A stretch of DNA of 40,968 nt from Candidatus Undinarchaeales archaeon SRR5007147.bin71 (GTDB lineage Archaea > Undinarchaeota > Undinarchaeia > Undinarchaeales > Undinarchaeaceae): assembly GCA_014189675.1 (NCBI GenBank), contig DVAE01000030.1:1-40968 (forward strand), written 5' to 3'. Position 1 is the first letter of the stretch; each line of letters begins with the position of its first letter. A program made the position numbers and the translations under genes. The notes below the pieces were generated by a model. The model ran no database searches, had not been told where the DNA came from, and saw only the letters and a program-made list of their open reading frames with translations. This document shows, one piece after another, positions 9,262 through 40,968 of the stretch.

Positions 9262-9966
9262 ATGGACTTTGGGAAAGCACCAAAAATAGTGGTGTCTGCA
9301 GACATTGCACCAAATGAGGCGGTTCAGCTTGTGGAGAAATTACTTCCAGCAAGAGATAAGATTGCAGCCCTGAAGCTTGGCTCTCTGCACGCAATGGATA
9401 TGGGCCTCAGAGAAACCATAAAGGTACTGAAGGAAGTTTCCGATTTTCCTTTGATTTATGACCACCAAAAAGGCTGCAGCGATATACCGGATATTGTTGA
9501 AAGGCAGGTTCTTCTGGCTTCTGACTGCGGGATAGACGCTGTGATTGGAGTTCCTCATGGAGCAGGTCCAAGGTCTCTGGAGAGATTCTGCACTAGCTGT
9601 AAAAGCGCAGGAATTGAAGCAATTGTTCTGCTTGAAATGACGCATGAAGGAGCTCATGATTATCACAAAGAAGATACTGCGAGAAAAATTTTTGATCACA
9701 TTATGGAGCTCGGGGTGAAAAATATTGTCGCTCCAGGAAACAAATATGAGAGACTTAGGGAATATAGAAAATGGATTGACGAGTCAGGCTCAGGAGCGAA
9801 GATAATGTCCCCTGGAATAGGAGCCCAAGGAGGTCAGGCAGAGAAGGCAGTTGGAGCAGGAACTGACTATCCTATAGTTGGGAGAGCAATTTATCTTGCG
9901 GAAGATCCAAAAAAAGCCGTAGACGAAATATATGAAAGTGCAGTGAGAGGTTATGAAAAGAGATGA
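9262..9966 (+). CDS. pyrF: Orotidine-5'-phosphate decarboxylase (divergent motif spacing)
   Basis: VSAD, LKLG, YDHQKGCSDIP, SPGIGAQGG and IVGRAIY motifs. Coupled to pyrE. Confidence 0.85.
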   Translation: MDFGKAPKIVVSADIAPNEAVQLVEKLLPARDKIAALKLGSLHAMDMGLRETIKVLKEVSDFPLIYDHQKGCSDIPDIVERQVLLASDCGIDAVIGVPHGAGPRSLERFCTSCKSAGIEAIVLLEMTHEGAHDYHKEDTARKIFDHIMELGVKNIVAPGNKYERLREYRKWIDESGSGAKIMSPGIGAQGGQAEKAVGAGTDYPIVGRAIYLAEDPKKAVDEIYESAVRGYEKR

Positions 9967-21677: not shown

Positions 21678-22547
21678 ATGAAACTGGGAAATTCTCTTTT
21701 GTTGTTATTAATAGTTAGTGTGAGCGGCTGTATTTCTCAGACAGAGACAGAAGCAGATAAAGAAGTAGAAGTCCCTCACATACCTGGTGAACCTGCAATA
21801 ATTGTTCCACATACTCAGGGAGAAAGAGATATTAGAGAAATAATGGAAGAGGGGAAACAGAGTGCAGAATTTGATATAGAAAACGAAGAGATACCTAAAT
21901 TTGTGGATGAAAATTTTATTGAGCTTGATAAAATTAAGTCAATTTCAAAGTTTAGAGGCGGTTATGGACACGATTTTTCTGCAGGAACAGGAGAAAGTTG
22001 CAGAAGTATGAAGCACTATTTTTGGCCGGCATGGGGTGAACATGGTAAAACTCATAATCCATCCTGGATGAGCATAGAATATTATTCACCGGTTGACGGA
22101 GTCATTGAGGAATTGCAATACAGGGAAAATGCCTATGGAACTGAGGCACAATTTCATATAGTACCAGACGAAGAACCTGCCTTCCTCCTCAGATTTTTCC
22201 ACTTGAAATTGCTTGACTCCCTAGGAGAGGGAAGTAGAGTAAGTGCTGGGCAGAAAATAGGAACTATTGGAGATGAGAATTCACACGCTGAGATTGCAGT
22301 TGAGCTTATGATACCTGATGGCTCCACAATAATTTCATTTTTCCAGATTATGAGTGATTCTGTGTTTGAGGAATACGCAGAGAGAGGTATGACATCAAGA
22401 GAGGATGTAATAATTAGCAAAGAAGAAAGGGATGCAGATCCTCTGGAATGTGACTATTCTACAGAAGCTGGATATTTCGTAGGAAGGGGAACTGAAAAAT
22501 ACGACAGATGGTCAACCAGCTCAGCGAACTGGCTTATGTTAAATTAA
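21678..22547 (+). CDS. Lipoprotein with M23/LytM-like barrel-sandwich segment
   Basis: Lipobox-like VSGC after a hydrophobic stretch. YSPVDGVI...FFHL...GSRVSAGQKIG...SHAE follows the M23 pattern, but the canonical HxH is not intact. Confidence 0.6.
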   Translation: MKLGNSLLLLLIVSVSGCISQTETEADKEVEVPHIPGEPAIIVPHTQGERDIREIMEEGKQSAEFDIENEEIPKFVDENFIELDKIKSISKFRGGYGHDFSAGTGESCRSMKHYFWPAWGEHGKTHNPSWMSIEYYSPVDGVIEELQYRENAYGTEAQFHIVPDEEPAFLLRFFHLKLLDSLGEGSRVSAGQKIGTIGDENSHAEIAVELMIPDGSTIISFFQIMSDSVFEEYAERGMTSREDVIISKEERDADPLECDYSTEAGYFVGRGTEKYDRWSTSSANWLMLN

Positions 22548-26983: not shown

Positions 26984-28127
26984 ACTATGGGCTGAGAAAT
27001 ACAGCCCGACGAAAATTGAGGAACTTGTTGGCCAGGAAAAGGCTGCTGAGACTCTGAAAACTTTTGTTAAGAATTACAAACCAGGCTCTGGGATTCTTCT
27101 TATTGGACCGAGCGGCTGCGGGAAAAACGTTCTTGTTTCAGCCCTGGCAAATGAAACTGGAAATGAGCTTCTGGAAACAAATGCATCAGACGTAAGGAAG
27201 AAGGCAGATATCGAAGAAATTATAGGAGGTGCTTCCCGTCAGATGAGTCTGACAGGGGATGGAAAAATAATACTCGTTGACGAAGCAGACGGAATCCACG
27301 GAAACTCTGATAGAGGAGGAGTACCTGCGATACTGAAGATAGTTCAAACCAGCGCATTCCCGATTGTTCTAACTGCAAATAATCCTGATGTGAGGGCAGT
27401 AAAAGAGCTGAAGAAGAAGTGCAAAGTTGTTAAAATGGCAAAGCTGACTGAAGCAGATGTTGCGGAGAGGCTTAAGGATATAATTTCTTCAGAAGGAATA
27501 GAAGCAGACGACAGCGTAATTATGCAGATAGCGTGGCGCTCAGAAGGCGACATGAGAATTGCAATAAATGAGCTCCAGGCAGTTTCGACCGGAAGACAGA
27601 AAATAACAAAGGAAAATTTGGAGCATTTAGGAGAACATGGCAAGAGACTTGCCGTTTCTGACGCTCTAAAAGCTATATTCAAAACTAAGGATGCAGATTT
27701 TATACGGAAGTCTATGTTTGCCTGCGATGTGGCGCCTGAAGAAATAATGCTGTGGATAGAAGAGAATATAGCACGTGAGTACGGAGATGCTTCGGAGATT
27801 GCAGAGGCCTATGACAAAGTATCACGGGCGGACATTTTTTTAAGAAGAATAAGAAGGGGGCAGCAGTGGGCTCTGCTTAGCTACGCCTCCGAGCTAATGT
27901 CAATAGGAACTGCCCGGGCGAAAAAAGAGAAGAATGGAAAGAGTGTAGATTATGTCTTTCCGCAGATAATTGCTCTTATGGGAAGAACAAAGTTCCAGAG
28001 AGCAAAAAGAGATTCCGAAGCCGCCGAGCTTGGGGAAGCTCTGCACTGCTCAAAAAAACGCGCGATTGAGCAGATGCCTTATTTTGATATTATTTTCCAA
28101 CACCAAGGACAGGGAAGCAGTCAGTAA
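26973..28127 (+). CDS. rfcL: Replication factor C large subunit (short form)
   Basis: WAEKYSP, GPSGCGKN, ETNASD, VDEADG, GDMR, WIEEN and ADIF motifs. Follows rfcS. Confidence 0.93.
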   Translation: MENELWAEKYSPTKIEELVGQEKAAETLKTFVKNYKPGSGILLIGPSGCGKNVLVSALANETGNELLETNASDVRKKADIEEIIGGASRQMSLTGDGKIILVDEADGIHGNSDRGGVPAILKIVQTSAFPIVLTANNPDVRAVKELKKKCKVVKMAKLTEADVAERLKDIISSEGIEADDSVIMQIAWRSEGDMRIAINELQAVSTGRQKITKENLEHLGEHGKRLAVSDALKAIFKTKDADFIRKSMFACDVAPEEIMLWIEENIAREYGDASEIAEAYDKVSRADIFLRRIRRGQQWALLSYASELMSIGTARAKKEKNGKSVDYVFPQIIALMGRTKFQRAKRDSEAAELGEALHCSKKRAIEQMPYFDIIFQHQGQGSSQ

Positions 28128-29070
28128 GATTTTCTATACGGCAATGAGTTACACTGATGTCCTCAGGATGTTCAACTTGCAAGTGGAGAGATAAGAACCT
28201 AAAATGAGAAGAATTTTGGGCTTCGCACTGAGCATCATCCCCAGTATCATTGATTACAGTATGCCTCTCAAGACAAGTTGCTGTATCTAGAGTGAAGTTC
28301 AGGATTTTTCCAGTATTTGAAAAATTTGCCTCCAAGGTACAAAGATTCAATCTAACATCATTTACTTTGTCGTTTGCAAGAGGGTCAAGGGCAGTAATAA
28401 ATTTGACAGTATAAGGAGGAGGTTCACCAACTTCTAGTGGAGGTGGAGTAAGCCCAAAACCTATCATAACTGGCATTTGCAGGTAGTCAAGAGACTCATC
28501 AAGAATTGTGAAGTGAAGCTCGCAGTCAGTTGTTGGTTCCGTTGGAGATTTGTTAAAATCCATAAGATTTGCACTGTCAGTTATACATTCAGGATCTACC
28601 GCCTCTGTCTGAGGAACACAAACATAGATAGCATCAGAGGATATAAAATCCTGACTTACTGTTCCTGCGACTGAGGACAATTGAGCTGAAACATTTATAG
28701 TCATAACCTCCTGAAGAGATGTGTCAATAACAAAAGTAATATTTTCTGCAAAGCCTTTTGAAGATATGAATGAATTCAGCTCATCTTTTGAATCGGTGCA
28801 AATATTCAGAAGAAAATCCTCATAAAGAAGGATATCTCCAATATCCTCACGGTTTGCGAAGAATAGAGCCTCGCTGACACATTCATCCATAACCTCACGA
28901 ATAACTTCAAAAACCTCTCCCGGATTCTGGGCAACAATAGACTGAGCCTGTTGTGTAGTAATTTCCTCAGCTTCCTCAGCTTCTAGAAAAACACTCGTTG
29001 CAACAACGATAACAATAACTGCACCGGCTATCGCAGCAACTCCGATGAGAGCCTTTCTGTTTTTGTTCAT
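28090..29070 (-). CDS. Cys-rich pilin-like protein with class III signal peptide
   Basis: Start MNKNRKA/LIGVAAIAG at 29070 (ATGA overlap), a hydrophobic helix and ten Cys. Last gene of the pilus operon. Confidence 0.65.
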   Translation of the reverse strand: MNKNRKALIGVAAIAGAVIVIVVATSVFLEAEEAEEITTQQAQSIVAQNPGEVFEVIREVMDECVSEALFFANREDIGDILLYEDFLLNICTDSKDELNSFISSKGFAENITFVIDTSLQEVMTINVSAQLSSVAGTVSQDFISSDAIYVCVPQTEAVDPECITDSANLMDFNKSPTEPTTDCELHFTILDESLDYLQMPVMIGFGLTPPPLEVGEPPPYTVKFITALDPLANDKVNDVRLNLCTLEANFSNTGKILNFTLDTATCLERHTVINDTGDDAQCEAQNSSHFRFLSLHLQVEHPEDISVTHCRIENLTDCFPVLGVGK

Positions 29071-29552
29071 TGTATAAACCATATTGCCAGATATACTGAG
29101 CAGGGAACAACAGTACAGGTGTTGTTAACATTTGCGCCGGAGATTGTTCTATCGATAGAGACTATCTCCTTTGTAGAAGGCTGAAGATTTGTAAGAGAAC
29201 CCCCTTTACGGGATATTGTTCCATTATCATATAAGTAAAATGTGAAACCAAGATGGTCAGGAAGCATTTTTGTCAGCTCACCTTCAAGATTAAAGGGGTC
29301 GTCAGCACTAGTCCAAGCTTGGTCTATAACAAACTTAGCAAGATCTTTTGAACTGTCATTATTCAAGTCACTTCTCCAAAGAGAGTTAAGAGAGTCTTTT
29401 GCATAGGTATTAAGAACAACATTTCCCCAGTCACCCGGCTGGCTGCTTTCTGTAAGCTGAAGAGACTGCAGATACATTATAGAAACAAATATCAAAACTG
29501 AAGCTAAGACTAGACCTACTAATTTTATCCACGCTTTTCTGTTTTCCATCAT
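29067..29552 (-). CDS. Minor pilin-like protein (class III signal peptide)
   Basis: MMENRKA/WIKLVGLVLASVLIF leader, N-glycosylation sequons and operon context. Confidence 0.7.
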   Translation of the reverse strand: MMENRKAWIKLVGLVLASVLIFVSIMYLQSLQLTESSQPGDWGNVVLNTYAKDSLNSLWRSDLNNDSSKDLAKFVIDQAWTSADDPFNLEGELTKMLPDHLGFTFYLYDNGTISRKGGSLTNLQPSTKEIVSIDRTISGANVNNTCTVVPCSVYLAIWFIQ

Positions 29553-29553
29553 T

Positions 29554-30081
29554 CTACCATACCATCAAAGTCACGTTAACTATTGTCTGGTTTATGACCA
29601 TAATTCTTGTAAGAACCACAACGTCTGAAAGCCTTGAAGGGTATCCTTCAGTCATATTAAGATAAACCCGACCAGATGACTCTATTTTGAGCCAGAATCG
29701 TGTACTATTTTCGAGGCTTAAGTTCTGGCTCACTTTTGTGTAGTTATTAGCTATAGTATCGTTTATGTAGAGGACTTTTTTCCAGTCCAGTTTGTTTCGA
29801 AGAGTTGAATTGCTAAAGTTGTTGTATTCCGCAAGTCCGATTCTGTCCGGAAGATTGTCAGAATCCCAGTCAGCAGGAAGTCCGGGATCATTCAAGAGGA
29901 GATTGCTTATATCGAGAGTCCTTGATTGGAGAACAAAGCGGTCAGAGGCCTCTTTCACAGACGGAGCCATATCAAGAATTGACATAGTCGCTGACATAAC
30001 CATTATTATGAGGAGAACTACCGCTATAATAACTCCTAGATTTCCCTGACCTTTATCTTGCTTTAGAAGAGGAATATCCAT
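29554..30081 (-). CDS. Minor pilin-like protein (class III signal peptide)
   Basis: DKG/QGNLGVIIAVVLLII leader, an LLNDPGLP.DW...IGLA motif and many sequons. Confidence 0.75.
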   Translation of the reverse strand: MDIPLLKQDKGQGNLGVIIAVVLLIIMVMSATMSILDMAPSVKEASDRFVLQSRTLDISNLLLNDPGLPADWDSDNLPDRIGLAEYNNFSNSTLRNKLDWKKVLYINDTIANNYTKVSQNLSLENSTRFWLKIESSGRVYLNMTEGYPSRLSDVVVLTRIMVINQTIVNVTLMVW

Positions 30082-30893
30082 GATGCCATGACCCCCGTTA
30101 CAAGGAATATTGCGCTGTGTTTGAGTCCAAGCTTTACAGAGTCATCAGCTATCTGGCCGGCTATCAGTCCGGTAAATATAGCCTGTATAACTACCATAGA
30201 AAAGAAAATTCCCTGATAAAAGGAAAGAACTGCTTCAGGGTCAATTGAGGCAATTGTAAATCCTCGAGAGAATACAAGAGGAACGAGAAGCTTCTGAAGC
30301 GAAATAACTATCATTAGAAAGAGGAAGAATATTGCATACATTATTACTGTTTGTTGCTGAAGCTTTGTCTTCCTCTCGGCTTCGGCTTCCTTGATTATGC
30401 GGGCGTCATTCGCGACCGCGTCAAGAGTTTCAGAAAGCGCTCCACCGCTCATTTGAGTTTCTATGATGATTGCAATAGCCCTTTGTACGAAACGACTGCG
30501 AGACTTTCTGGAAAATCTTCTTAGAGCTTCAATAAAAGGGACTCCCCAAGATAACTGAACAGCCATTTTCCTGACATATTTGCTAAGGACTCCATAATCA
30601 GTCTTTGAGCTTTTTGAAACAGCCTGAGGAAGAGTCAGCCCTGACTTTCTTGATTCTGCTATATCCCTAAGAAATGCCGGAAGCTGGTCCTCGATTTCCT
30701 CGATTTCCTTTCGTGAAGTATATGAGAAATAGGAGTAAGGAAGAAAGACAAGGAGAATCGCCACGCTGAAAGCTGGAGGAAGTAAATCATTTCGACCGAG
30801 TGCAAAGGGGATTATCATAAGAATTATGGCCAAGGCTGCGCTTATTCCGAGCACAATGTGCTGTGTTTTTACTGAAAGATTTTTTATATCCAT
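30063..30893 (-). CDS. Type IV pilus membrane platform protein (TadC/T2SS-F family)
   Basis: IEDQLPAFLRDIAESRKSGLTL...YGVLS...SWG...SGG, with TM helices. Confidence 0.92.
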   Translation of the reverse strand: MDIKNLSVKTQHIVLGISAALAIILMIIPFALGRNDLLPPAFSVAILLVFLPYSYFSYTSRKEIEEIEDQLPAFLRDIAESRKSGLTLPQAVSKSSKTDYGVLSKYVRKMAVQLSWGVPFIEALRRFSRKSRSRFVQRAIAIIIETQMSGGALSETLDAVANDARIIKEAEAERKTKLQQQTVIMYAIFFLFLMIVISLQKLLVPLVFSRGFTIASIDPEAVLSFYQGIFFSMVVIQAIFTGLIAGQIADDSVKLGLKHSAIFLVTGVMASWIFLF

Positions 30894-31774
30894 TAGAGAG
30901 GGGAAGCGATTTTTAGGAGACCTATCATAACAATTCCTGCGACAGGCAGAAAGATGTAGACAAGCGCCTGCTGGAGAAACCTAAAGCTTTCGAAACCAGA
31001 GATTGACCCCATAATAGTGAGCATGACTGTCGAAAATATTGAGCCGACGATGACAAGAGTAATGTAAAGTTCTATGTAAATTGAGAGATCGTTTGTGTAT
31101 TTTTCTATCTTTCTCCTGTATTCATTCATGAGAATTTTGGACTTTCCTGAGAGAAGAGCCCTTAGATTGCCTCCGCCGACTATTGTAGTTGAAATTCCCA
31201 AAAGCATTTCTTTGAACTGATCAGAAGGAGTCTGCTCCGCTGCCTTGTGAAGAGCATCATCGATGTCACGCCCCATTACTTCAACATCTTCCACTATTTT
31301 CTGTGCCTCCTTGGAAACTTCTCCGTATTCCTTGAAATCAGCAAGAAGTTTGAACATGGCAAAAGGAGGAGCTCCAGTTCCGGCTATTGTATTCATATAC
31401 AAAGTCGCAAAAGGGAGATTATTCTCTATATCTTTCTTTCTTTCTGCAGCAAGCATCTGAGGATAATAGAGAGACCCGACAAAAATTCCGGCTGTCAGAA
31501 CTGCCGTAACTGCAAGTGAGAGTATAAGTGCAAGAAGGAAGGGCTTCCCAAGAAGAATTATGTAAAGATAAGTTAGAGGAAGGGCGATGGCAGGAGTTAT
31601 CAGAGCATTCAGAAAGCATATGCAAACATACTCGCGGAGCATTATACCCATATTCGCCTGCCGGAGGAAAGGGTGTATCCATCGGAATTTGTCTATCTTT
31701 GTCTCCACAAAGTCCCGAAAAAGCCGGCTGGCAACTTCTACATACTTTTCATAGGATGATTTTTTCTCTGCCAT
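30893..31774 (-). CDS. Type IV pilus membrane platform protein (TadB/C, T2SS-F family)
   Basis: IENNLPFATLYM...YGEVSKEA...G.D...AL...TPS...GG, with TM helices. Confidence 0.92.
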   Translation of the reverse strand: MAEKKSSYEKYVEVASRLFRDFVETKIDKFRWIHPFLRQANMGIMLREYVCICFLNALITPAIALPLTYLYIILLGKPFLLALILSLAVTAVLTAGIFVGSLYYPQMLAAERKKDIENNLPFATLYMNTIAGTGAPPFAMFKLLADFKEYGEVSKEAQKIVEDVEVMGRDIDDALHKAAEQTPSDQFKEMLLGISTTIVGGGNLRALLSGKSKILMNEYRRKIEKYTNDLSIYIELYITLVIVGSIFSTVMLTIMGSISGFESFRFLQQALVYIFLPVAGIVMIGLLKIASPL

Positions 31775-31775
31775 A

Positions 31776-33695
31776 TCACTTTATATGATTGAGAAGCTTG
31801 CTAGGATTCTGGTAGTACTCATGTATGACTCTGCCAACATTCCGGTAGTCCCTAATATTTTTTGACTTCATCCAGTCCAGCACCTTCATTCTGTTCTTTA
31901 CCTCCTCGTAGATTGAATCAGGAGTTCCTCCTGTAATCTCCATGATGAGCTTTAGTATTGAGCTCTTGCCAGAATATGAATATTTATCGTTTGAGGCAGA
32001 CCAAGTAAAGGCAGTGTTTGTTTTTGGAATATCTTTTTCAATATCATATCCTGTTATCTCAACTAGCTCCTTTGACCTACGGATGTACTTGCCCTTAATT
32101 CTCTGTCTTGTAAGAACAAGAAGTAAGTCAAGGTGCTGAAGCAGACTCGGAGGCAGGTTTATAGGAGGAGTTCTGAGCCGATTAACTACTGCCATCATAG
32201 ATTCAGCGTGGATAGTGCTAAGACCAGGGTGTCCTGTTGCCATCTGTTGGAAGAGAACATAGGCTTCACGGCCCCTCACTTCACCGACGATTATAATATC
32301 AGGTCTCTGACGCAGAGAAGCTTTGAGCAAGTCAAAGAGATCTATCTCACCAAGTTTCTTTCCACTCACTCCTTCAGGACCGAAGCCAGTTCTTGAAACC
32401 TGCGACACCCAATTCTCATGTGGAAGTCGAAGCTCAGGAGTATCTTCAATAGTTATTACTTTCAACTCTGGCCTGATGAAAAGAGACAGGGCATTCAGCA
32501 TCGTAGTTTTTCCGGACGCAGTAGGTCCAGCAATCAGGATAGACTTGCCGTGCTCTATAGCAAGCCATAGATATGCAAGAAGCTCTGAGTTCACAGTACC
32601 ATAATTAAGAAGATCTATGCAGGTCATTGGATCGGCTGTGAACTTCCTTATTGTGAAATTTGAACCCTTCATTGAGATTCCAGAGCCGAAAGTTGCCTGT
32701 ACACGTGAGCCATCAGGGAGAGCTCCATCAAGTAAGGGATCTGCTATGCTGATGGAACGCCCGCATTTCTGGGACAAGCGCATAACGAAGGAATCTAACT
32801 CCTCCTCTGTGTCGAACTTGACATTTGTCCTCACTGAGCCGAATCGCTGGTCACGGTGGTACACATAAATTGGGACGCCAACGCCATCGCAACTTATGTC
32901 CTCTATGTTCGGATCATTTAGCAAAGAATCTATCTTACCAAAGCCTATGAAATTTCGCTGGATGTAATATTCTATGAAGTGCCTAGTTCTTTCACTCATT
33001 CTGAAATTATAGTAGCTTATAACAGAATCCAGTTTTTGTGATAGGTACTGCTCCGCCTTGAGAGTCTTTAGTGCGGAAAAGTCAACCTCCAGTTCCTCGA
33101 CAAGAGTACTCTCTATTCTTTTGAGCATCTCATTTTCCTGGGGAGTAAGAACAGGCTCTATAACCTTGTAAAGAAGACCTTGAGACCTTGGATCATAGCG
33201 TATATTTGCGTAGACATGGACTTTCCCTCCTTTATATATCAGAGGGTAGGTTATATTGACTCCAAGAAGAGATTCTCTCCTTTCAGGCTCATGTTTTTGC
33301 GTACTAGGCCTTCTTCGACCACCAGAAGTTGATGGAAGTGAAAGTGAAAAATCCGATTGGACGCGACGGGTAGTCTTTGGCTCCTCTGCAGGAACAGCTA
33401 CAGATTCTTTCTTCACCTGCTTTTCAAGAGCAAGTTTCAGAAGCTCGGATACAAGCGATTTAAGCTCACTCTCTGAGACTCCTTCTCCATTCTCTTTTGA
33501 AAGTTCAGATGAAATCCTATCAAAACTTTCCTCACTTATTGCCTGCTTGTTCCTGGCATCAATGGCAGGTTGAAGTATGTCCATAAGATTTGGAGCGGAC
33601 CTCTTTTGAGAAACACCAGGAGGCATCTGCACAGGAGCAGGGCTGGAATGATATGTCTTCTTTGCGTGTTTTAGGAACTTTGTAAGGTTCTTCAT
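31776..33695 (-). CDS. Type IV pilus assembly ATPase (VirB11/TadA/FlaI family)
   Basis: IEDISCDG, LPDGSRVQ, FTIRKF, Walker A GPTASGKT, IEDTPEL, RQRPDIIIVGEVRG and His box TGHPGLSTIH. Confidence 0.97.
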   Translation of the reverse strand: MKNLTKFLKHAKKTYHSSPAPVQMPPGVSQKRSAPNLMDILQPAIDARNKQAISEESFDRISSELSKENGEGVSESELKSLVSELLKLALEKQVKKESVAVPAEEPKTTRRVQSDFSLSLPSTSGGRRRPSTQKHEPERRESLLGVNITYPLIYKGGKVHVYANIRYDPRSQGLLYKVIEPVLTPQENEMLKRIESTLVEELEVDFSALKTLKAEQYLSQKLDSVISYYNFRMSERTRHFIEYYIQRNFIGFGKIDSLLNDPNIEDISCDGVGVPIYVYHRDQRFGSVRTNVKFDTEEELDSFVMRLSQKCGRSISIADPLLDGALPDGSRVQATFGSGISMKGSNFTIRKFTADPMTCIDLLNYGTVNSELLAYLWLAIEHGKSILIAGPTASGKTTMLNALSLFIRPELKVITIEDTPELRLPHENWVSQVSRTGFGPEGVSGKKLGEIDLFDLLKASLRQRPDIIIVGEVRGREAYVLFQQMATGHPGLSTIHAESMMAVVNRLRTPPINLPPSLLQHLDLLLVLTRQRIKGKYIRRSKELVEITGYDIEKDIPKTNTAFTWSASNDKYSYSGKSSILKLIMEITGGTPDSIYEEVKNRMKVLDWMKSKNIRDYRNVGRVIHEYYQNPSKLLNHIK

Positions 33696-34138
33696 TATAT
33701 ATCCTCTAATACCATTATACCAGACGTTGAATTATAAGCTATACGATGTTGCCCGCCGGCTGTAGAACTGAAACTTCCATTGATTGAAATGTTAAATTTT
33801 AGTATTGGAAGAGTCCGATTTATGTCATAGAATTCATCGCGAACGAGTATTGATGTATTATTTGTAATGATTAAGTAGCGATGACCCGCAAGATAGGGAG
33901 GAAGTTCTATATTAAGTGAGTAATTATCAACATACCTTCCGTAGATGTAAGAGTTTGATATGGCCAGGTGAACATAGGAGGCAACGTTCCTGAACTGGTG
34001 ACCTGCCTGGAAATCAGACATGTCATCTTTTATTCCGCCGAAAACTGTAAGAAACATTATAAAGATGAAAACGCCCATCACCGCGAAGCATACCTGCTCG
34101 AATATGGCCGTACTGCCCTTACGGTTATAGAAGCCCAT
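33695..34138 (-). CDS. Minor pilin-like protein (class III signal peptide)
   Basis: MGFYNRKG/STAIFEQ leader plus hydrophobic helix and a LPPYLAGHRY motif. Coupled to the ATPase. Confidence 0.75.
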   Translation of the reverse strand: MGFYNRKGSTAIFEQVCFAVMGVFIFIMFLTVFGGIKDDMSDFQAGHQFRNVASYVHLAISNSYIYGRYVDNYSLNIELPPYLAGHRYLIITNNTSILVRDEFYDINRTLPILKFNISINGSFSSTAGGQHRIAYNSTSGIMVLEDI

Positions 34139-34179
34139 ATTACGACTAAAGAAAGCGCTTATTTATCTATTTTGATACC

Positions 34180-34830
34180 TCATCTTAGGTCAACGAGGAC
34201 ATTTGTATGTATTGTACCGCTGCTGTTAACTCTACCCATGTTTCTTGCTATAACTGTTGTTGAAGTTCCCGAAACTCTGGAAACTTCACCAATTGAAATA
34301 TTAATCAGATAGGACGTTGATGAGGTGGTGTCGTTTATCTGCCTAAACCATATCATAAAGGAATTCGCATAGCTGTTCCCAGATTTGAAAGGCCGAGCTA
34401 CCAGAACACCGGAGCTTCCATTAGTCTGATTTGCTGAGCATCGAATATTCGGCTCTATAGGGTCTATAGACACCCAGTCTAATGAATCGATGAGCTTCCG
34501 GTTGTTCGTGAGATTGTATAGAATTGCATTCTTGTTCACATTCGTACCGGAGCAATGGCTTCCGTTAAGAACGGATAAACTTCCCATCCTCAAGTTCATT
34601 CGCACTATACGGGTCGAGTTTATCTGTTCCTGTCCGACCTCAAGAATTGCGTTCTTTATATCGAGAAGTTTTGCCTGAGAATAAGTAACCGTAACTGATA
34701 CTTGCTGAGTTTCCAGCATCTCCTTCCCCCAGCTAAAAGTCAGTATAACAAGAGCTGTTACAACAAGAATCATCACGACTGAGGATATAACAGGGGACTG
34801 GGCTTTTCTAGAGCGGTGATGAGAAACCAT
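34180..34830 (-). CDS. Pilin-like protein (class III signal peptide)
   Basis: SRKA/QSPVISSVVMILVVTALV leader and many sequons. Confidence 0.82.
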   Translation of the reverse strand: MVSHHRSRKAQSPVISSVVMILVVTALVILTFSWGKEMLETQQVSVTVTYSQAKLLDIKNAILEVGQEQINSTRIVRMNLRMGSLSVLNGSHCSGTNVNKNAILYNLTNNRKLIDSLDWVSIDPIEPNIRCSANQTNGSSGVLVARPFKSGNSYANSFMIWFRQINDTTSSTSYLINISIGEVSRVSGTSTTVIARNMGRVNSSGTIHTNVLVDLR

Positions 34831-34845
34831 AATATGAAAGGATGC

Positions 34846-35343
34846 CTAGCAAAGGTAGCTCGAATAGGTGCATGTGAACTTGATGAGCTTCTCGGCAGAT
34901 GTTTCTTTTGAAGAGATTCTTACCTCTTTCGTCTTGTTTACCCACTCAGAACAGGAAACATCATTCAGGACGCCTCCGCTGTAGGAAGTTACAGTTCCGG
35001 CGGAGAGTGTGTCATTAGCCATACCTGACTGCAGGGCATCATCCACAAAGAGCTGAAGCTTCTCAGCCTGCTCTGTCCCTGCGTTTCTTACATAAATTGT
35101 GATGTTTGCTTTATCAGTGCTTGAAGAGCAATTTGCTACAAAACCCTCAACTTTCAGTTGTACGTTAAGACCTCCTAGAAGTTCCAAGCTTGTGTTCTCG
35201 CTTGAAGTCTGTATTGTACCCTGCATTCTCTGAAGGAAAGTATAAGCTAGACCGGCTATTGCTATAGTCATCATAAGAAGTAGAATAACTGAAATTATAG
35301 GAGTTATTCCCTTTTTGCTTGAAAAGAATTTTGGAAATCTCAT
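34846..35343 (-). CDS. Archaeal type IV (probable major) pilin
   Basis: SKKG/ITPIISVILLLMMTIAIAGLAY, the canonical archaeal pilin N-terminus, plus IYVRNAG. Confidence 0.92.
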   Translation of the reverse strand: MRFPKFFSSKKGITPIISVILLLMMTIAIAGLAYTFLQRMQGTIQTSSENTSLELLGGLNVQLKVEGFVANCSSSTDKANITIYVRNAGTEQAEKLQLFVDDALQSGMANDTLSAGTVTSYSGGVLNDVSCSEWVNKTKEVRISSKETSAEKLIKFTCTYSSYLC

Positions 35344-35543
35344 TTTGCCTCCATAATCTCGATTACAGTTTCAAGGACATACAATATTGAAAGCATGACA
35401 ATGACCTGAAGACCTGCCATGAAAATTAGAAGCATTGAAGACATACCTGTTCCTCTCGCAATATAAGCAATTACTAGAGAGAATATAAAAGCCAGAATTA
35501 TTGTTATCTGGATTACGATTTTACGGGATTTTCGGGTAGTCAT
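35340..35543 (-). CDS. Small two-TM membrane protein in the pilus operon
   Basis: Basic N-terminus and two hydrophobic helices. ATGA overlap with the pilin gene. Confidence 0.7.
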   Translation of the reverse strand: MTTRKSRKIVIQITIILAFIFSLVIAYIARGTGMSSMLLIFMAGLQVIVMLSILYVLETVIEIMEAK

Positions 35544-35544
35544 A

Positions 35545-36123
35545 TTATTGTGGAGGTAGTGGAGGCGGTGGTAGCTGCCTTCTTGGCTGCTGCGGTCTCT
35601 GAACAGGAGCAGGAGCCACTACAGCTCTTTGTGGCGCTACGCTCTGTCGCCTTAAATATCTTTCCAAGGAATCAAGAGTCTTAGATAGTTGCTTGTTTTG
35701 TTCCTTGAAATCAGTCATTGCAGATTTCATCTCACCTATTGCTGATGAAACTTCCTTCATACTTCCTTCTTCTTCAGTTTCCATTGCCTCTGTTGCTTCG
35801 GCGAATATTGTAAGTATTTTGGAAAGCTTCTGGGAAAGCCCACGGTTAGTCTCATTCATCAAGTCAAGAGCACTCTGTATCTTTTCTGCGACTTGCTGAT
35901 TGGATTTTGAGACCTGCTCCTGCATTTGCTGAGTTGACTCCAGGAGGCCCATCATTTTTTTTATGAATTCGTCTGCGTGTGATTCAATTTTTGTGAGCCC
36001 GACAGTGCCGCGCAGAGCGGATTTAATTTCATTTATATCGTGCTCGAGCTTCTCTTCCTTTCGTTCGAGCTCGTCATAAGGGCTTGACGCAACAACTTCG
36101 TATGATTCAGACTCTTCCGCCAT
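35545..36123 (-). CDS. Coiled-coil protein with Pro/Gln-rich tail, first gene of the pilus operon
   Basis: Heptad-like E/K/Q/M-rich helix ending RRQLPPPPLPPQ. Minus-strand TTTATATA at 36149-36156, 25 nt upstream. Confidence 0.75.
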   Translation of the reverse strand: MAEESESYEVVASSPYDELERKEEKLEHDINEIKSALRGTVGLTKIESHADEFIKKMMGLLESTQQMQEQVSKSNQQVAEKIQSALDLMNETNRGLSQKLSKILTIFAEATEAMETEEEGSMKEVSSAIGEMKSAMTDFKEQNKQLSKTLDSLERYLRRQSVAPQRAVVAPAPVQRPQQPRRQLPPPPLPPQ

Positions 36124-37920: not shown

Positions 37921-39378
37921 TTACTGTTCTATTAGATTTGCAAGATACCGCTTTACAAGCAAAGTTGCCCTGCAATCATCTTCATTATAATCTATGACTT
38001 TCTGGAGCTTTTTCCGGTCTCCAGTATCGACAAATTCATTGTAGAGCACAATCGACTGCATAGCATCAAGGTCTTCGTGCCTCCAGGAGTCCGGTTTCAG
38101 GAATTTTGCGACAGCTTTCAGGGAGTAGGAGTAGAGAGGAAAAACGACTGATTTATGAGAAACTCTATATAAATCTACCATTCTTTCCAGAATCTTTATC
38201 CCTTCAACTTGGTACTTTTCAAAAAGTTTTTTTAGTGCAGTGACTTCATAGGTATTCCAGTGATATAGGACATAATCCCCTTTTGAATCTAGGTACTTTA
38301 GAAACTCACGAAAGATTTTTTCCTCATCGTCCGGTGTCTCAGCCAAGAAAGATATGTATTTTTCAGAGCCATTCTCTGATTCAAGAATTCCCATCAGATA
38401 GTCGAAGGGCTCGGCTCCAGAGGTTATTTCATCCGTCCCCTCAAGGTCGAAATAAAGTTCAGCTTTTGCATCCGGCAGAACTATAGCATCTTTATTCTTT
38501 ACTACAGGCTTGCCGGATTTTAGTGACTCGGCGCAGAGTTTGAACTGTGTAGCTTTTACATCTCCGATACCTTCAATGTCTGTCAAATTTGAAATATCGA
38601 CTCCCTGAATATCAGAAACTGTGAAAATCTTGGAAGCATTTAATTTTGCCTTCATAGCTCCAGAAATGCCGGGAATCAGAGAGACATCATCGGCTTCTTT
38701 TGCCATTTTATTTGTATAGCTGGTCCAATTATATTTTACAGAACCGTATGTCGGCGATGGGGTAATGTCTCCGGATTTTATTTTCAAAACATCCGCAATA
38801 GAGAGCTCGAGTGCAGATTTATAATCAGCAAATTTGTGAGGAATAATGTCGTTATTTCGATTTACAAGATAAAATTCCTCAGGAGTGAAGCCCTGTATTT
38901 TTCCTAGGACAAAATTGTAGTAGGCAGCTTGCAAAATATGGTCTCGTTTTATGTTCTTTGCAACTTTTATTTCCTTTACAATATAGTGATAGTTTCCAAA
39001 GATGCTTTCACCTTTCCTTTTTTCAAGAAGATCGGCGCGGCCCATGAGATTTTCCGGAAGATATATGAGAGGACTGTTTGCAACTGCTTCCGTTCCTGTG
39101 AAAAAATCATCGAGAGCCATTCGGAAACCCTCTCTTTCGCTTGTGAACTCGAGTGTCTTCATACCAGGATGCTGAGCCTCTATTGAATCGGCTTCATGCT
39201 TAATTCCTGCTTCTGAAAGGAGTTCCTGGAATCTGTTCGGCTTGTCGCGCTCATCTTCCGGAGCAAACTCATTACAGTAAATTACGAAGGGCTCCTTGAT
39301 ATAATTGGCAACATCGCCTCCTTTAACAAATTTTCCATTGCCTTCAGTACATTTTTTGAAAAGTTCTTCAGTATCCAT
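37921..39378 (-). CDS. TM0106-family RecB-like nuclease (PD-(D/E)xK + HhH + YprB-like RNase H domain)
   Basis: GRADLL...KEIK...LQAAYY nuclease motif, HhH motifs IPGIS and IEGIG, and FDLEG...YHW..YE...DL...YSLKAVA...YNEDDC. Confidence 0.88.
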   Translation of the reverse strand: MDTEELFKKCTEGNGKFVKGGDVANYIKEPFVIYCNEFAPEDERDKPNRFQELLSEAGIKHEADSIEAQHPGMKTLEFTSEREGFRMALDDFFTGTEAVANSPLIYLPENLMGRADLLEKRKGESIFGNYHYIVKEIKVAKNIKRDHILQAAYYNFVLGKIQGFTPEEFYLVNRNNDIIPHKFADYKSALELSIADVLKIKSGDITPSPTYGSVKYNWTSYTNKMAKEADDVSLIPGISGAMKAKLNASKIFTVSDIQGVDISNLTDIEGIGDVKATQFKLCAESLKSGKPVVKNKDAIVLPDAKAELYFDLEGTDEITSGAEPFDYLMGILESENGSEKYISFLAETPDDEEKIFREFLKYLDSKGDYVLYHWNTYEVTALKKLFEKYQVEGIKILERMVDLYRVSHKSVVFPLYSYSLKAVAKFLKPDSWRHEDLDAMQSIVLYNEFVDTGDRKKLQKVIDYNEDDCRATLLVKRYLANLIEQ

Positions 39379-40008: not shown

Positions 40009-40083
40009 AAGCTTAGTTATTACAAGGCTATGATAAAAGACTTGCGGGGAAAGAATTAATATAAAGCAGGATTAAGGGCAAGT

Positions 40084-40968
40084 ATGCCCAATAGGAAAGC
40101 TGCAGCCGGATTAGTTCTTGGAGTTGTTCTGATAATTGTACTTATACCTACGATGATAGGGCTTCTCGGTCTTGGAAAACTTGCAGGAGGGCTGTTTGGA
40201 GAGACGGAAGGAGTTATTCCAACTAATGGGAAAGAGCTTATTGTTCTAGGGAATCCAGGAAATCTGATGGTAGCAGGCTACAGTGACGGAGACGCCAAGC
40301 TACTGTTTGATTCTGAAGTTGGAAATGAATTTCCGAATGTATTCGGAAATGGGGGAAACCCATGGGTACAAGTAAGAGTTGGAGACCTTGATGGAGACGG
40401 AATTGATGATGATTTTATTGCATTGACTGAAGACAAGGAACTCGTAATTTTTAACATTAAAGATTATACAGAACAGTATACGCAATTGAATGACTATGAC
40501 ACTTCAGACCTTGCAGGGCTTACAAATTGGGACGTAATAAGTCTTGAGGAAGACGAGCCGAGTGATTCAAATATGATTGGAGGTGCAGGAGATAGTTTGG
40601 GAGACATAAGAGCTTTCAGAAAAGATGACGGGGAAATTATAATTGGGAACAAACCACTACTTGTCGGAGATTTGGATGGGGACGGGGACGATGAAATAAT
40701 TGTTTTAGGAGTGTCGGTGTTACATATTTATAGGCAAACAGATTCAGGAGGATACGAAGAATATTCTGTTGAGTATTATGATTCTTGGGAATCAGAAGCC
40801 AATACTGTGAGTTTCGCAGGCGGAGTTGAGGTTGCAGGAATATCAGATAGCGATTTGGATGGACGTGAAAATAATATAGTCCTCATCTATAGGAGCACCA
40901 CAAACGAGGAGAAATCTCCTCGAAAGATGAGAACACTTGAGATTGAGATGTTCCAACTTCAGTCAGGA
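40084..40968 (+). CDS. FG-GAP/VCBS-repeat surface protein with class III-like leader (3' truncated; not in ORF track)
   Basis: Manual translation is open for 295 codons to the edge: MPNRKA/AAGLVLGVVLIIVLIP... with repeats VGDLDGDGIDDDFI, VGDLDGDGDDEIIV and ISDSDLDGRENNIV. Confidence 0.85.
   Translation, partial: MPNRKAAAGLVLGVVLIIVLIPTMIGLLGLGKLAGGLFGETEGVIPTNGKELIVLGNPGNLMVAGYSDGDAKLLFDSEVGNEFPNVFGNGGNPWVQVRVGDLDGDGIDDDFIALTEDKELVIFNIKDYTEQYTQLNDYDTSDLAGLTNWDVISLEEDEPSDSNMIGGAGDSLGDIRAFRKDDGEIIIGNKPLLVGDLDGDGDDEIIVLGVSVLHIYRQTDSGGYEEYSVEYYDSWESEANTVSFAGGVEVAGISDSDLDGRENNIVLIYRSTTNEEKSPRKMRTLEIEMFQLQSG

Follow-up and report, generated by a model that had tools for sequence, protein, structure and literature searches.

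A recombining FG-GAP propeller gene with a putative class III leader at a contig end of an Undinarchaeales genome

What kind of surface protein is encoded at the very end of a contig of Candidatus Undinarchaeales archaeon SRR5007147.bin71, and is it connected with the type IV filament encoded on the same contig? The stretch analysed here, referred to as the window, is 40,968 nucleotides long (DVAE01000030.1) and is the entire contig C16 of the genome G000 (624 kb in 39 contigs, estimated to be 83% complete); the open reading frame (ORF) at positions 40084-40968, which runs off its edge, is therefore truncated by the assembly. The original prediction, made from the letters of the sequence, took this ORF for a propeller with a pilin leader, a candidate PilY1-like adhesin and a plausible factor of host recognition. 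The ORF is the first half of a predicted calcium-loop β-propeller surface protein from a marine, symbiotic-type archaeon with a tiny genome. It lies at a locus of two slots, between which, as between genomes, propeller bodies have been exchanged, and its display through the pilus machinery is put forward tentatively.

The predicted ORF is real: it is an ATG-started frame on the forward strand, 295 amino acids long and open at the contig end. It is divergent from the gene of a 208-amino-acid membrane protein, from which it is separated by a 75-nt spacer, and the final 60 nt of this spacer before the ATG show 95-98% sliding identity across all three genomes of the genus, namely the genome of the window and two others, G015 and G016. 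The fragment is composed of MPNRKA, 26 uncharged residues (counting A6), a Gly-rich hinge and a β-rich sequence, and its start is as had been described, MPNRKA followed by AAGLVLGVVLIIV. The features of the ORF and of its upstream region, with the slot, leader and body types that are explained below, are as follows.

40009..40083, no strand: divergent intergenic region, a 75-nt A/T-rich spacer with a TATA-like A/T-rich box about 20-30 nt before the ATG.
40084..40968, + strand: FG-GAP propeller surface-protein gene, 5' part (slot 1, leader L1, body type A), with an ATG start and 295 codons, 3'-open at the contig end.
40084..40101, + strand: n-region MPNRKA, in which K and A occupy -2 and -1 of a putative class III site; all 11 of the 11 aligned members keep R-K-A.
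40102..40176, + strand: predicted hydrophobic helix, residues 7-31, comprising 25 of the 26 uncharged residues and of a length like that of pilin α1 (sequence, and a helix at residues 5-37 of a low-pLDDT model).
40177..40245, + strand: Gly-rich hinge and leader/body recombination junction, marked by a drop in identity and by metagenome contigs that diverge at 40178 and 40245.
40384..40410, + strand: calcium-type loop 1 by motif, DLDGDGIDD (residues 101-109).
40669..40695, + strand: calcium-type loop 2 by motif, DLDGDGDDE (residues 196-204), in the best Pfam FG-GAP stretch.
40846..40863, + strand: calcium-type loop 3 by motif, DSDLDG (residues 255-260).

The assignment to FG-GAP proteins with calcium-type loops, which had been proposed by eye, is borne out by Pfam. 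The 295-residue fragment alone matches FG-GAP_3 (PF13517) with an E value of 4.7e-7 and 30.7 bits against a cut-off of 26.9. The full-length relative P0001, which is the slot-1 protein of G015, reaches 39.3 bits for PF13517 and 24.0 bits for FG-GAP (PF01839, cut-off 22.1), and the slot-2 paralogue reaches 43.7 and 34.9 bits, respectively. Where at least three repeats had been counted, Dx[DN]xDG motifs lie at three places in the fragment (residues 101, 196 and 255, nt 40384, 40669 and 40846) and at five in full-length P0001; in FG-GAP/VCBS propellers, closed rings of about seven blades, one such loop is expected for each blade. Among ESM Atlas clusters with a Pfam family, the ten nearest all belong to FG-GAP, and several are from archaea. 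The loops are of the calcium type by motif and may bind calcium.

AlphaFold2 was applied to P0001 (11 alignment rows) and to the 513-residue slot-2 paralogue (14 rows) and gave propeller models for both, though of low confidence (pLDDT 43-46, with means of 45.6 and 43.3; pTM of 0.55 and 0.57). With scores as poor as these the fold is a lead rather than a result. In the P0001 model a helix spans residues 5-37, the propeller strands run from residue 51, and the structural alignments begin at residues 43-50. All Foldseek matches listed for both models are β-propellers, with UmbA4 (9oee_A) at the top (E values of 4.3e-6 and 9.9e-8) and with integrin αV, ITFG2, YesW, the PVL lectin of Psathyrella and CRTAC1 among the others. 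The VIA alignments of these low-pLDDT models to propellers have Z scores of 20-21 and root mean square deviations of 3.0-4.0 Å over 250-312 residues, and extend over model residues 45-622, a span which suggests that a single ring would be closed by the strand that follows the hinge at the N-terminus together with those at the C-terminus. Model residues ~361-545 (pLDDT ~23) fall outside of this ring as an insert. The Pfam matches, the five calcium-type loops of the full-length protein and the models together make an FG-GAP propeller a reasonable reading.

The search of PDB sequences with the family profile yielded loop-level matches only, the best being the PL11 lyase 4cag_A (E value of 0.0024), followed by YesW (E value of 0.052), through GDxDGDG loops only; YesW and YesX are also found among the Foldseek matches. 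Such hits would suit a protein with no part in recognition, either a secreted or anchored FG-GAP enzyme, for instance a polysaccharide lyase of the PL11 type, or a structural calcium-binding component of the envelope. A role of this kind is improbable, as the sequence matches are limited to generic loops and the longest structural alignment of the low-confidence models, with 312 residues, is to the lectin-like UmbA4; the variability described below, with a hypervariable insert and cassette exchange, is also more easily reconciled with a binding surface than with an active site.

A calcium-binding propeller encoded near type IV pilus genes invites comparison with the bacterial tip adhesins PilY1 and PilC. 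PilY1 is regulated via a calcium site and is not known to be a pilin-type precursor itself. No PilY1/PilC Pfam domain (PF05567, the C-terminal propeller) was found in the fragment (E ≤ 1) or in P0001 and the slot-2 paralogue (E ≤ 0.01). The repeat family here is FG-GAP, and no PilY1 structure is present among the listed Foldseek and VIA matches. The resemblance is one of analogy; true homology to PilY1/PilC is hardly credible, and the PilY1 label, taken as a family name, should be dropped.

The family is lineage-specific. A word-indexed search for longer proteins recovered six relatives of 525-636 residues among 8000 scored candidates, the closest full-length one being P0001, with 87% identity across the entire fragment; the full-length relatives, of 596-636 residues, are restricted to this Undinarchaeales genus. 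When 1.84 billion cluster representatives were searched exhaustively with HMMER, ten proteins were found at E ≤ 0.001 and only four at E ≤ 1e-10, one of which is the fragment of the window itself. With the family profile as query, 23 proteins came up at E ≤ 0.001; eight are in the family and the rest are generic FG-GAP/VCBS proteins at E values of 3e-17 or weaker. In the survey of the phylum the gene (E ≤ 1e-5) was present in three of 17 genomes (72-98% complete), all three in the genus of the window, one of 11 genera. A scan of metagenome contigs located two loci among the matches listed (603 pattern matches) and no further variants. In composition, P0001-P0004 and the slot-2 paralogue of G015 are strongly acidic proteins (15-17% D+E) of 513-636 residues with only 0-2 N-x-S/T sequons and with 6-12 cysteines, of which several lie in the variable insert.

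A partial copy of the slot-1 protein of G016, P0006, lies on a 1763-bp contig labelled by NCBI as an Anaerolineales (Chloroflexi) metagenome-assembled genome (MAG), and is probably mis-binned. The abundance of marine Undinarchaeales has been described to co-vary with that of Chloroflexi (Dehalococcoidales) (PMC7414124).

The relatives in G015 and G016 define the structure of the locus. In both genomes the gene order is pilus locus, coiled-coil protein, thermosome, RNase_H_2-like protein, 208-amino-acid membrane protein, two tandem family members, a helix-turn-helix (HTH) protein and fibrillarin, and the synteny with the pilus locus is preserved in each of the three genomes of the genus. In slot 1 the leader is always L1 (MPNRKA...), and four of four full-length L1 sequences end in the same 14-residue tail; slot 2 always has leader L2 (..MRKAQGG...), and its tails differ from that of slot 1. 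The body of type A is found in slot 1 of G015 and in slot 2 of G016, while slot 1 of G016 is occupied by a type B body (~40% identity to type A) and slot 2 of G015 by type C (~26%). Leader L1 was found on type A and type B bodies only, in four proteins among 1867 candidates.

The identity between the copies changes abruptly along the sequence. P0001 and P0004 are 98% identical in the leader, 40% in the N-terminal half and 100% in the tail, while P0001 and P0002 are 36% identical in the leader, 88% in the N-terminal half, 28% in the middle (361-545) and 91% in the C-terminal part, and thus the middle insert of ~185 residues retains 28% identity between copies that are otherwise ~90% identical. 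The same is seen in DNA: in the three slot-1 comparisons identity is 85-100% from 60 nt upstream of the gene to its nt 120 and then ~45% between body types, and the two type-A genes are 90-98% identical, then 32-45% over ~660 nt, then 90-95%. Over residues 55-295 the type-A body differs to about the same degree in each of the three pairs (92-94% identity), whereas the adjacent non-essential genes are 95-96% identical between G000 and G015 and 82-85% between G000 and G016, a contrast that speaks for exchange between lineages.

The window was also aligned with contigs of four further marine metagenomes. One contig departs from its sequence at 40178 and three join it at 40245, one of these with an L2-type junction before, so the joint between leader and body is recombinant in nature; in other samples the type-A body is joined to either leader type. 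Each slot thus keeps a constant leader and tail, and recombination exchanges the propeller bodies and the insert. This pattern is the one that recognition proteins show when under diversifying pressure, and a recognition role, as the original prediction had it, fits the extreme variability of a 28% identical middle and swapped bodies. The family probably serves cell-to-cell recognition.

Diversification by a diversity-generating retroelement (DGR) was considered as well. Reverse transcriptase (PF00078) was found in none of the three genomes of the genus (75-86% complete) at E ≤ 0.01, and the indels and the 28% identity of the insert are unlike DGR mutagenesis, which makes this mechanism unlikely. 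Runs of N interrupt the tail of the slot-1 gene and another gene on contig C12 of G015 (~9600-9700 and 200-330), and the unmasked sequence of the slot-1 protein was taken from P0001.

The contig of the window ends ~75 nt before the start of the variable middle insert. The sole other family piece in the G000 assembly is a 54-codon 3' end located at the end of contig C15 and followed by HTH and fibrillarin genes, in the same order as in the relatives. The tail of this piece is of the slot-2 kind (82% identity to slot 2 of G016 against 37% to slot 1 of G015 in a 60-nt window), and hence the piece is more likely to come from a second, tandem type-A-like gene than from the ORF of the window. No L2-type leader was detected in the G000 assembly with P0002 as a query. 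An assembly would break at this point if strains differed in the insert, and equally if two nearly identical bodies stood in tandem.

The second part of the question concerns the leader. The elements of a class III signal are present, with MPNR-K-A placed directly before the hydrophobic AAGLVL..., and, of the residues in archaeal substrates, the basic one at -2 and the G/A(/S) at -1 are given as the most important (PMC3387779). The R-K-A is unchanged in 11 of 11 family members, though the two leader types share just 32-36% identity. The uncharged stretch of 26 residues exceeds the ~20 expected of such precursors and compares with 22-27 residues in the proteins of the pilus locus and 17-24 in most ORFs of Sec/lipobox type. 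A24 prepilin peptidase is encoded on contig C21 (17167-17511) within a 288-residue ORF, with 39.2 bits, above the cut-off. The filament genes of the window are the following.

34846..35343, - strand: pilin, 165 residues, leader ..SSKKG/ITPIIS (TIGR02537, 36.1 bits against a cut-off of 20; Arch_flagellin, 1.4e-6).
34180..34830, - strand: pilin-like protein, 216 residues, leader ..RSRKA/QSPVIS (TIGR02537, 16.9 bits, below the cut-off).
33695..34138, - strand: pilin-like protein, 147 residues, leader ..YNRKG/STAIFE (DUF7266, 1.7e-4, below the cut-off).
31776..33695, - strand: type IV filament assembly ATPase, 639 residues (T2SSE, 3.8e-37).
30063..31774, - strand: two genes of platform proteins, 293 and 276 residues, TadB/C- or ArlJ-like (T2SSF, 2.3e-15 and 6.3e-18).
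28090..30081, - strand: three proteins with K[AG] plus a helix, without a Pfam family: 175 residues, ..QDKG/QGN; 160 residues, MENRKA/WIK; 326 residues, MNKNRKA/LIG.

The locus as a whole spans 28090-35343 on the minus strand, and its layout, an ATPase and two platform genes, is that of 'system 1', which is reported for DPANN among others in a 2026 survey (PMC13705601, section 11). The leaders with which MPNRKA had been compared are all present in it: MNKNRKA (28090-29070, -), M(M)ENRKA (29067-29552, -) and ..YNRKG (33695-34138, -). The distance of about 4 kb that had been given holds for the nearest pilin gene (34846-35343, 4.7 kb away) and does not hold for the two NRKA genes, which are 10.5-12 kb away.

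The specificity of this likeness was assessed in an uncurated screen of all G000 ORFs of at least 100 residues, 50 of which have a single N-terminal hydrophobic segment. K/R followed by A/G occurs at the boundary of the helix in five of these 50, namely four proteins of the pilus locus and the ORF at 40084, and in none of the 43 single-anchor ORFs that, apart from the ORF at 40084, lie outside of the locus; the shared form of start is therefore confined to the locus proteins and this ORF. NRK[AG] is present within the first 15 residues of five distinct ORFs genome-wide (7 of 9186 start candidates) and is followed by a hydrophobic segment in four ORFs of the 624-kb genome, all inside the window, which is above chance, the background being eight occurrences in 296,935 residues (the 1858 longest ORFs). 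The exact NRKA is common to two proteins of the locus.

Several observations weigh against the view that such a leader leads the protein to a filament. TIGR02537, the archaellin/pilin N-terminal domain, matched neither leader type at E ≤ 1, and Pfam Pilin_N did not match the fragment at E ≤ 1. No globular pilin module follows the helix; in the low-confidence models the propeller starts from about residue 46. The gene lies outside of the operon and on the opposite strand, with four genes between (coding for the coiled-coil protein, the thermosome, the RNase_H_2-like protein and the 208-residue membrane protein), and synteny inside one genus counts as a single observation. Two other surface proteins of G000, encoded on contigs C8 and C38, have a similar helix and a GG[LI][LF]G hinge without a K[AG] site, and hence the architecture could be that of a generic anchor. 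The low confidence of the models has to be added to these points. TIGR02537, on the other hand, misses four of the six K[AG]-leader proteins of the pilus locus that were scanned (the three NRK[AG] proteins and the 175-residue protein), and its failure on the ORF is of limited weight, since it is blind to most leaders of the locus.

Most of these observations would also suit a variable FG-GAP propeller held by an uncleaved signal-anchor as a type II membrane protein, independent of the pilus and only incidentally near its genes. The missing match to the pilin N-terminal hidden Markov model, the missing globular pilin module, the position off the operon and on the other strand, and the helix-plus-hinge design of the C8 and C38 proteins all agree with it; a short basic n-region is expected of any anchor with its N-terminus inside, and in Nanoarchaeota the 'external' proteins with a single N-terminal transmembrane segment are described as the most polymorphic class, with no reference to pili in the text cited (PMC6142677). 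The signal-anchor accounts poorly for a K-A that is invariant at the helix boundary across two dissimilar leaders, for the restriction of the K/R-A/G boundary to five of the 50 ORFs with none of 43 outside of the locus, and for the exact NRKA. It is the chief rival reading, somewhat doubtful and of appreciable probability. Judged from the sequence, class III processing of the leader has a roughly even or better chance, and incorporation into a filament would be less likely than the processing.

The favoured, if tentative, reading is that of a surface lectin or adhesin with a class III signal, displayed through the pilus machinery. Leader cleavage, incorporation into the pilus, a ligand and calcium binding are all predicted, and we infer the following sequence of events. 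The A24 peptidase encoded on C21 would cut the MPNRKA leader after Ala6. By means of the remaining pilin-like helix the neighbouring filament machinery, that is the ATPase and the two platform proteins, would lift the protein out of the membrane. It could be displayed as a tip or minor subunit of the filament, or else on a short stalk of the bindosome kind. A molecule on the surface of a partner cell, probably a glycan, would then be bound by the propeller, mainly through its looped-out, variable and Cys-rich insert of ~185 residues.

A bolder interpretation regards the two-slot locus as an archaeal switch of host range or recognition, where filament-displayed lectins have their bodies and insert swapped between a constant promoter-leader and a constant tail. 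It is rather unlikely; if true, it would resemble the exchange of phage receptor-binding proteins or bacterial pilin variation, and the locus would set which partner cells this DPANN archaeon attaches to.

Several further genes of the region deserve mention. The gene of a 192-residue coiled-coil protein with a Pro/Gln-rich C-terminus (35545-36123, -), between the thermosome and pilin genes, keeps its position in three of three genomes of the genus; it has weak matches, below the cut-offs, to FlaC_arch and to a 'putative adhesive domain', and may be part of the filament locus. A 67-residue ORF with two membrane helices and no Pfam family (35340-35543, -) overlaps the start of the pilin gene by 4 nt. 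The 216-residue pilin-like protein shows many N-x-S/T sequons by eye. The protein of 485 residues encoded between the thermosome and membrane-protein genes (37921-39378, -) matches RNase_H_2 (1.6e-34) and DUF2779, contains helix-hairpin-helix motifs and, by these matches, may be a nuclease; pilus-mediated DNA uptake together with nucleases is a speculation of Dombrowski et al. (PMC7414124). Homologues of the 208-residue membrane protein are present in nine of 17 genomes of the phylum, and in the three loci of other genera that were compared neither an FG-GAP nor a pilus gene stands beside it.

The C8 and C38 proteins of G000 (C8:1-1076, -, and C38:37696-39197, +) are encoded by two more large surface-protein genes running off contig ends. 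They share a leader of ~40 residues (50% identity) on unrelated bodies: the C38 protein is a propeller of the BNR/Ycf48 type (PSII_BNR, 1.5e-25), and the C8 protein has a thrombospondin type 3 repeat and a homologue in G016 which is a 927-residue ORF. This is the second case in the genus of one leader on different cargoes. In G000 many N-terminal signals, those of a dozen ORFs or more (e.g. C10:14575, C11:25550 and 21678-22547 in the window), terminate in the lipobox-like motif ..SGC[TL].., which suggests that anchoring of the lipoprotein type is the common route for export in this archaeon.

What is new here is the two-slot locus of cassette exchange, and a genus-specific FG-GAP propeller within the theme of surface binding proteins that bear a class III leader. 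We know of no host of any member of Undinarchaeota. The leader, if nothing else, links the propeller to the one filament machinery that this 0.6-Mb genome has; the protein varies by cassette exchange and is thus a concrete candidate for the recognition step in how DPANN archaea choose and hold their partners. The gene can serve as a marker with which host specificity is followed at the strain level in marine metagenomes, and it illustrates that genes of this kind are absent from the annotation of MAGs because they break assemblies.

In the literature on the phylum, Dombrowski et al. describe genes for pili in every Undinarchaeota MAG and, for Undinarchaeales, name adhesion candidates of the LamG type (PMC7414124). 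The terms FG-GAP, integrin and pilin are absent from the main text of that paper, whose supplementary tables of adhesion proteins may list the locus. No paper describing the family in DPANN or other archaea was found, as judged mostly from titles and the beginnings of abstracts, and the S10 Fig of PMC13705601 may list the locus.

PilY1/PilC and the 'PilY-like' arCOG03511 adhesin of the archaeal subsystem 4A/B (PMC13705601, PMC4858521) are propeller-type adhesins functionally tied to a type IV filament, as is proposed here. The protein of the window differs from them in its repeat type and has no membership in their sequence families; the filament locus here has the layout of system 1 and not that of 4A/B. 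While the PilY1 gene is part of a minor-pilin operon, the gene described here lies on the strand opposite to the nearest pilin gene, at a distance of 4.7 kb and with four other genes between. With UmbA4 (9oee), the Psathyrella velutina lectin (2bwr, 5mb4), integrin αV and CRTAC1 it shares the Pfam repeat family and the predicted fold, with identities of 9-16% in low-confidence models; unlike FG-GAP lectins and integrin α, it has a membrane helix at its N-terminus and a large insert that varies.

By analogy, the protein would work most like the modular pilins of bacteria and the binding proteins of archaea with class III signals. PilB, with its von Willebrand A (vWA) module, and PilC of Streptococcus sanguinis have a pilin-type N-terminus and a bulky adhesion module, and a role in pilus adhesion is proposed for them (PMC8179133 / 10.1101/2021.01.27.428410, PMC9934059). 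In these proteins the adhesion module is grafted behind a full pilin module of α1 and a globular domain; here the low-confidence models place the propeller after the helix and a Gly-rich hinge of ~15 residues.

The archaeal binding proteins with class III signals, such as those of the bindosome and the SPIII-plus-binding-domain (SPIII, class III signal peptide) proteins of system 1, are said to 'functionalize' archaeal type IV filaments (PMC13705601). The cargo here is an FG-GAP propeller as opposed to a solute-binding protein, there is no ATP-binding cassette (ABC) transporter in its context, the processing is predicted, and the Undinarchaeales family is mosaic and restricted to one genus. 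The common features are a short, basic n-region that has K/R at -2 and G/A at -1, directly followed by a long hydrophobic helix and then by a large binding domain, encoded by a gene that may sit off the filament locus in a genome possessing both filament machinery and an A24 peptidase.

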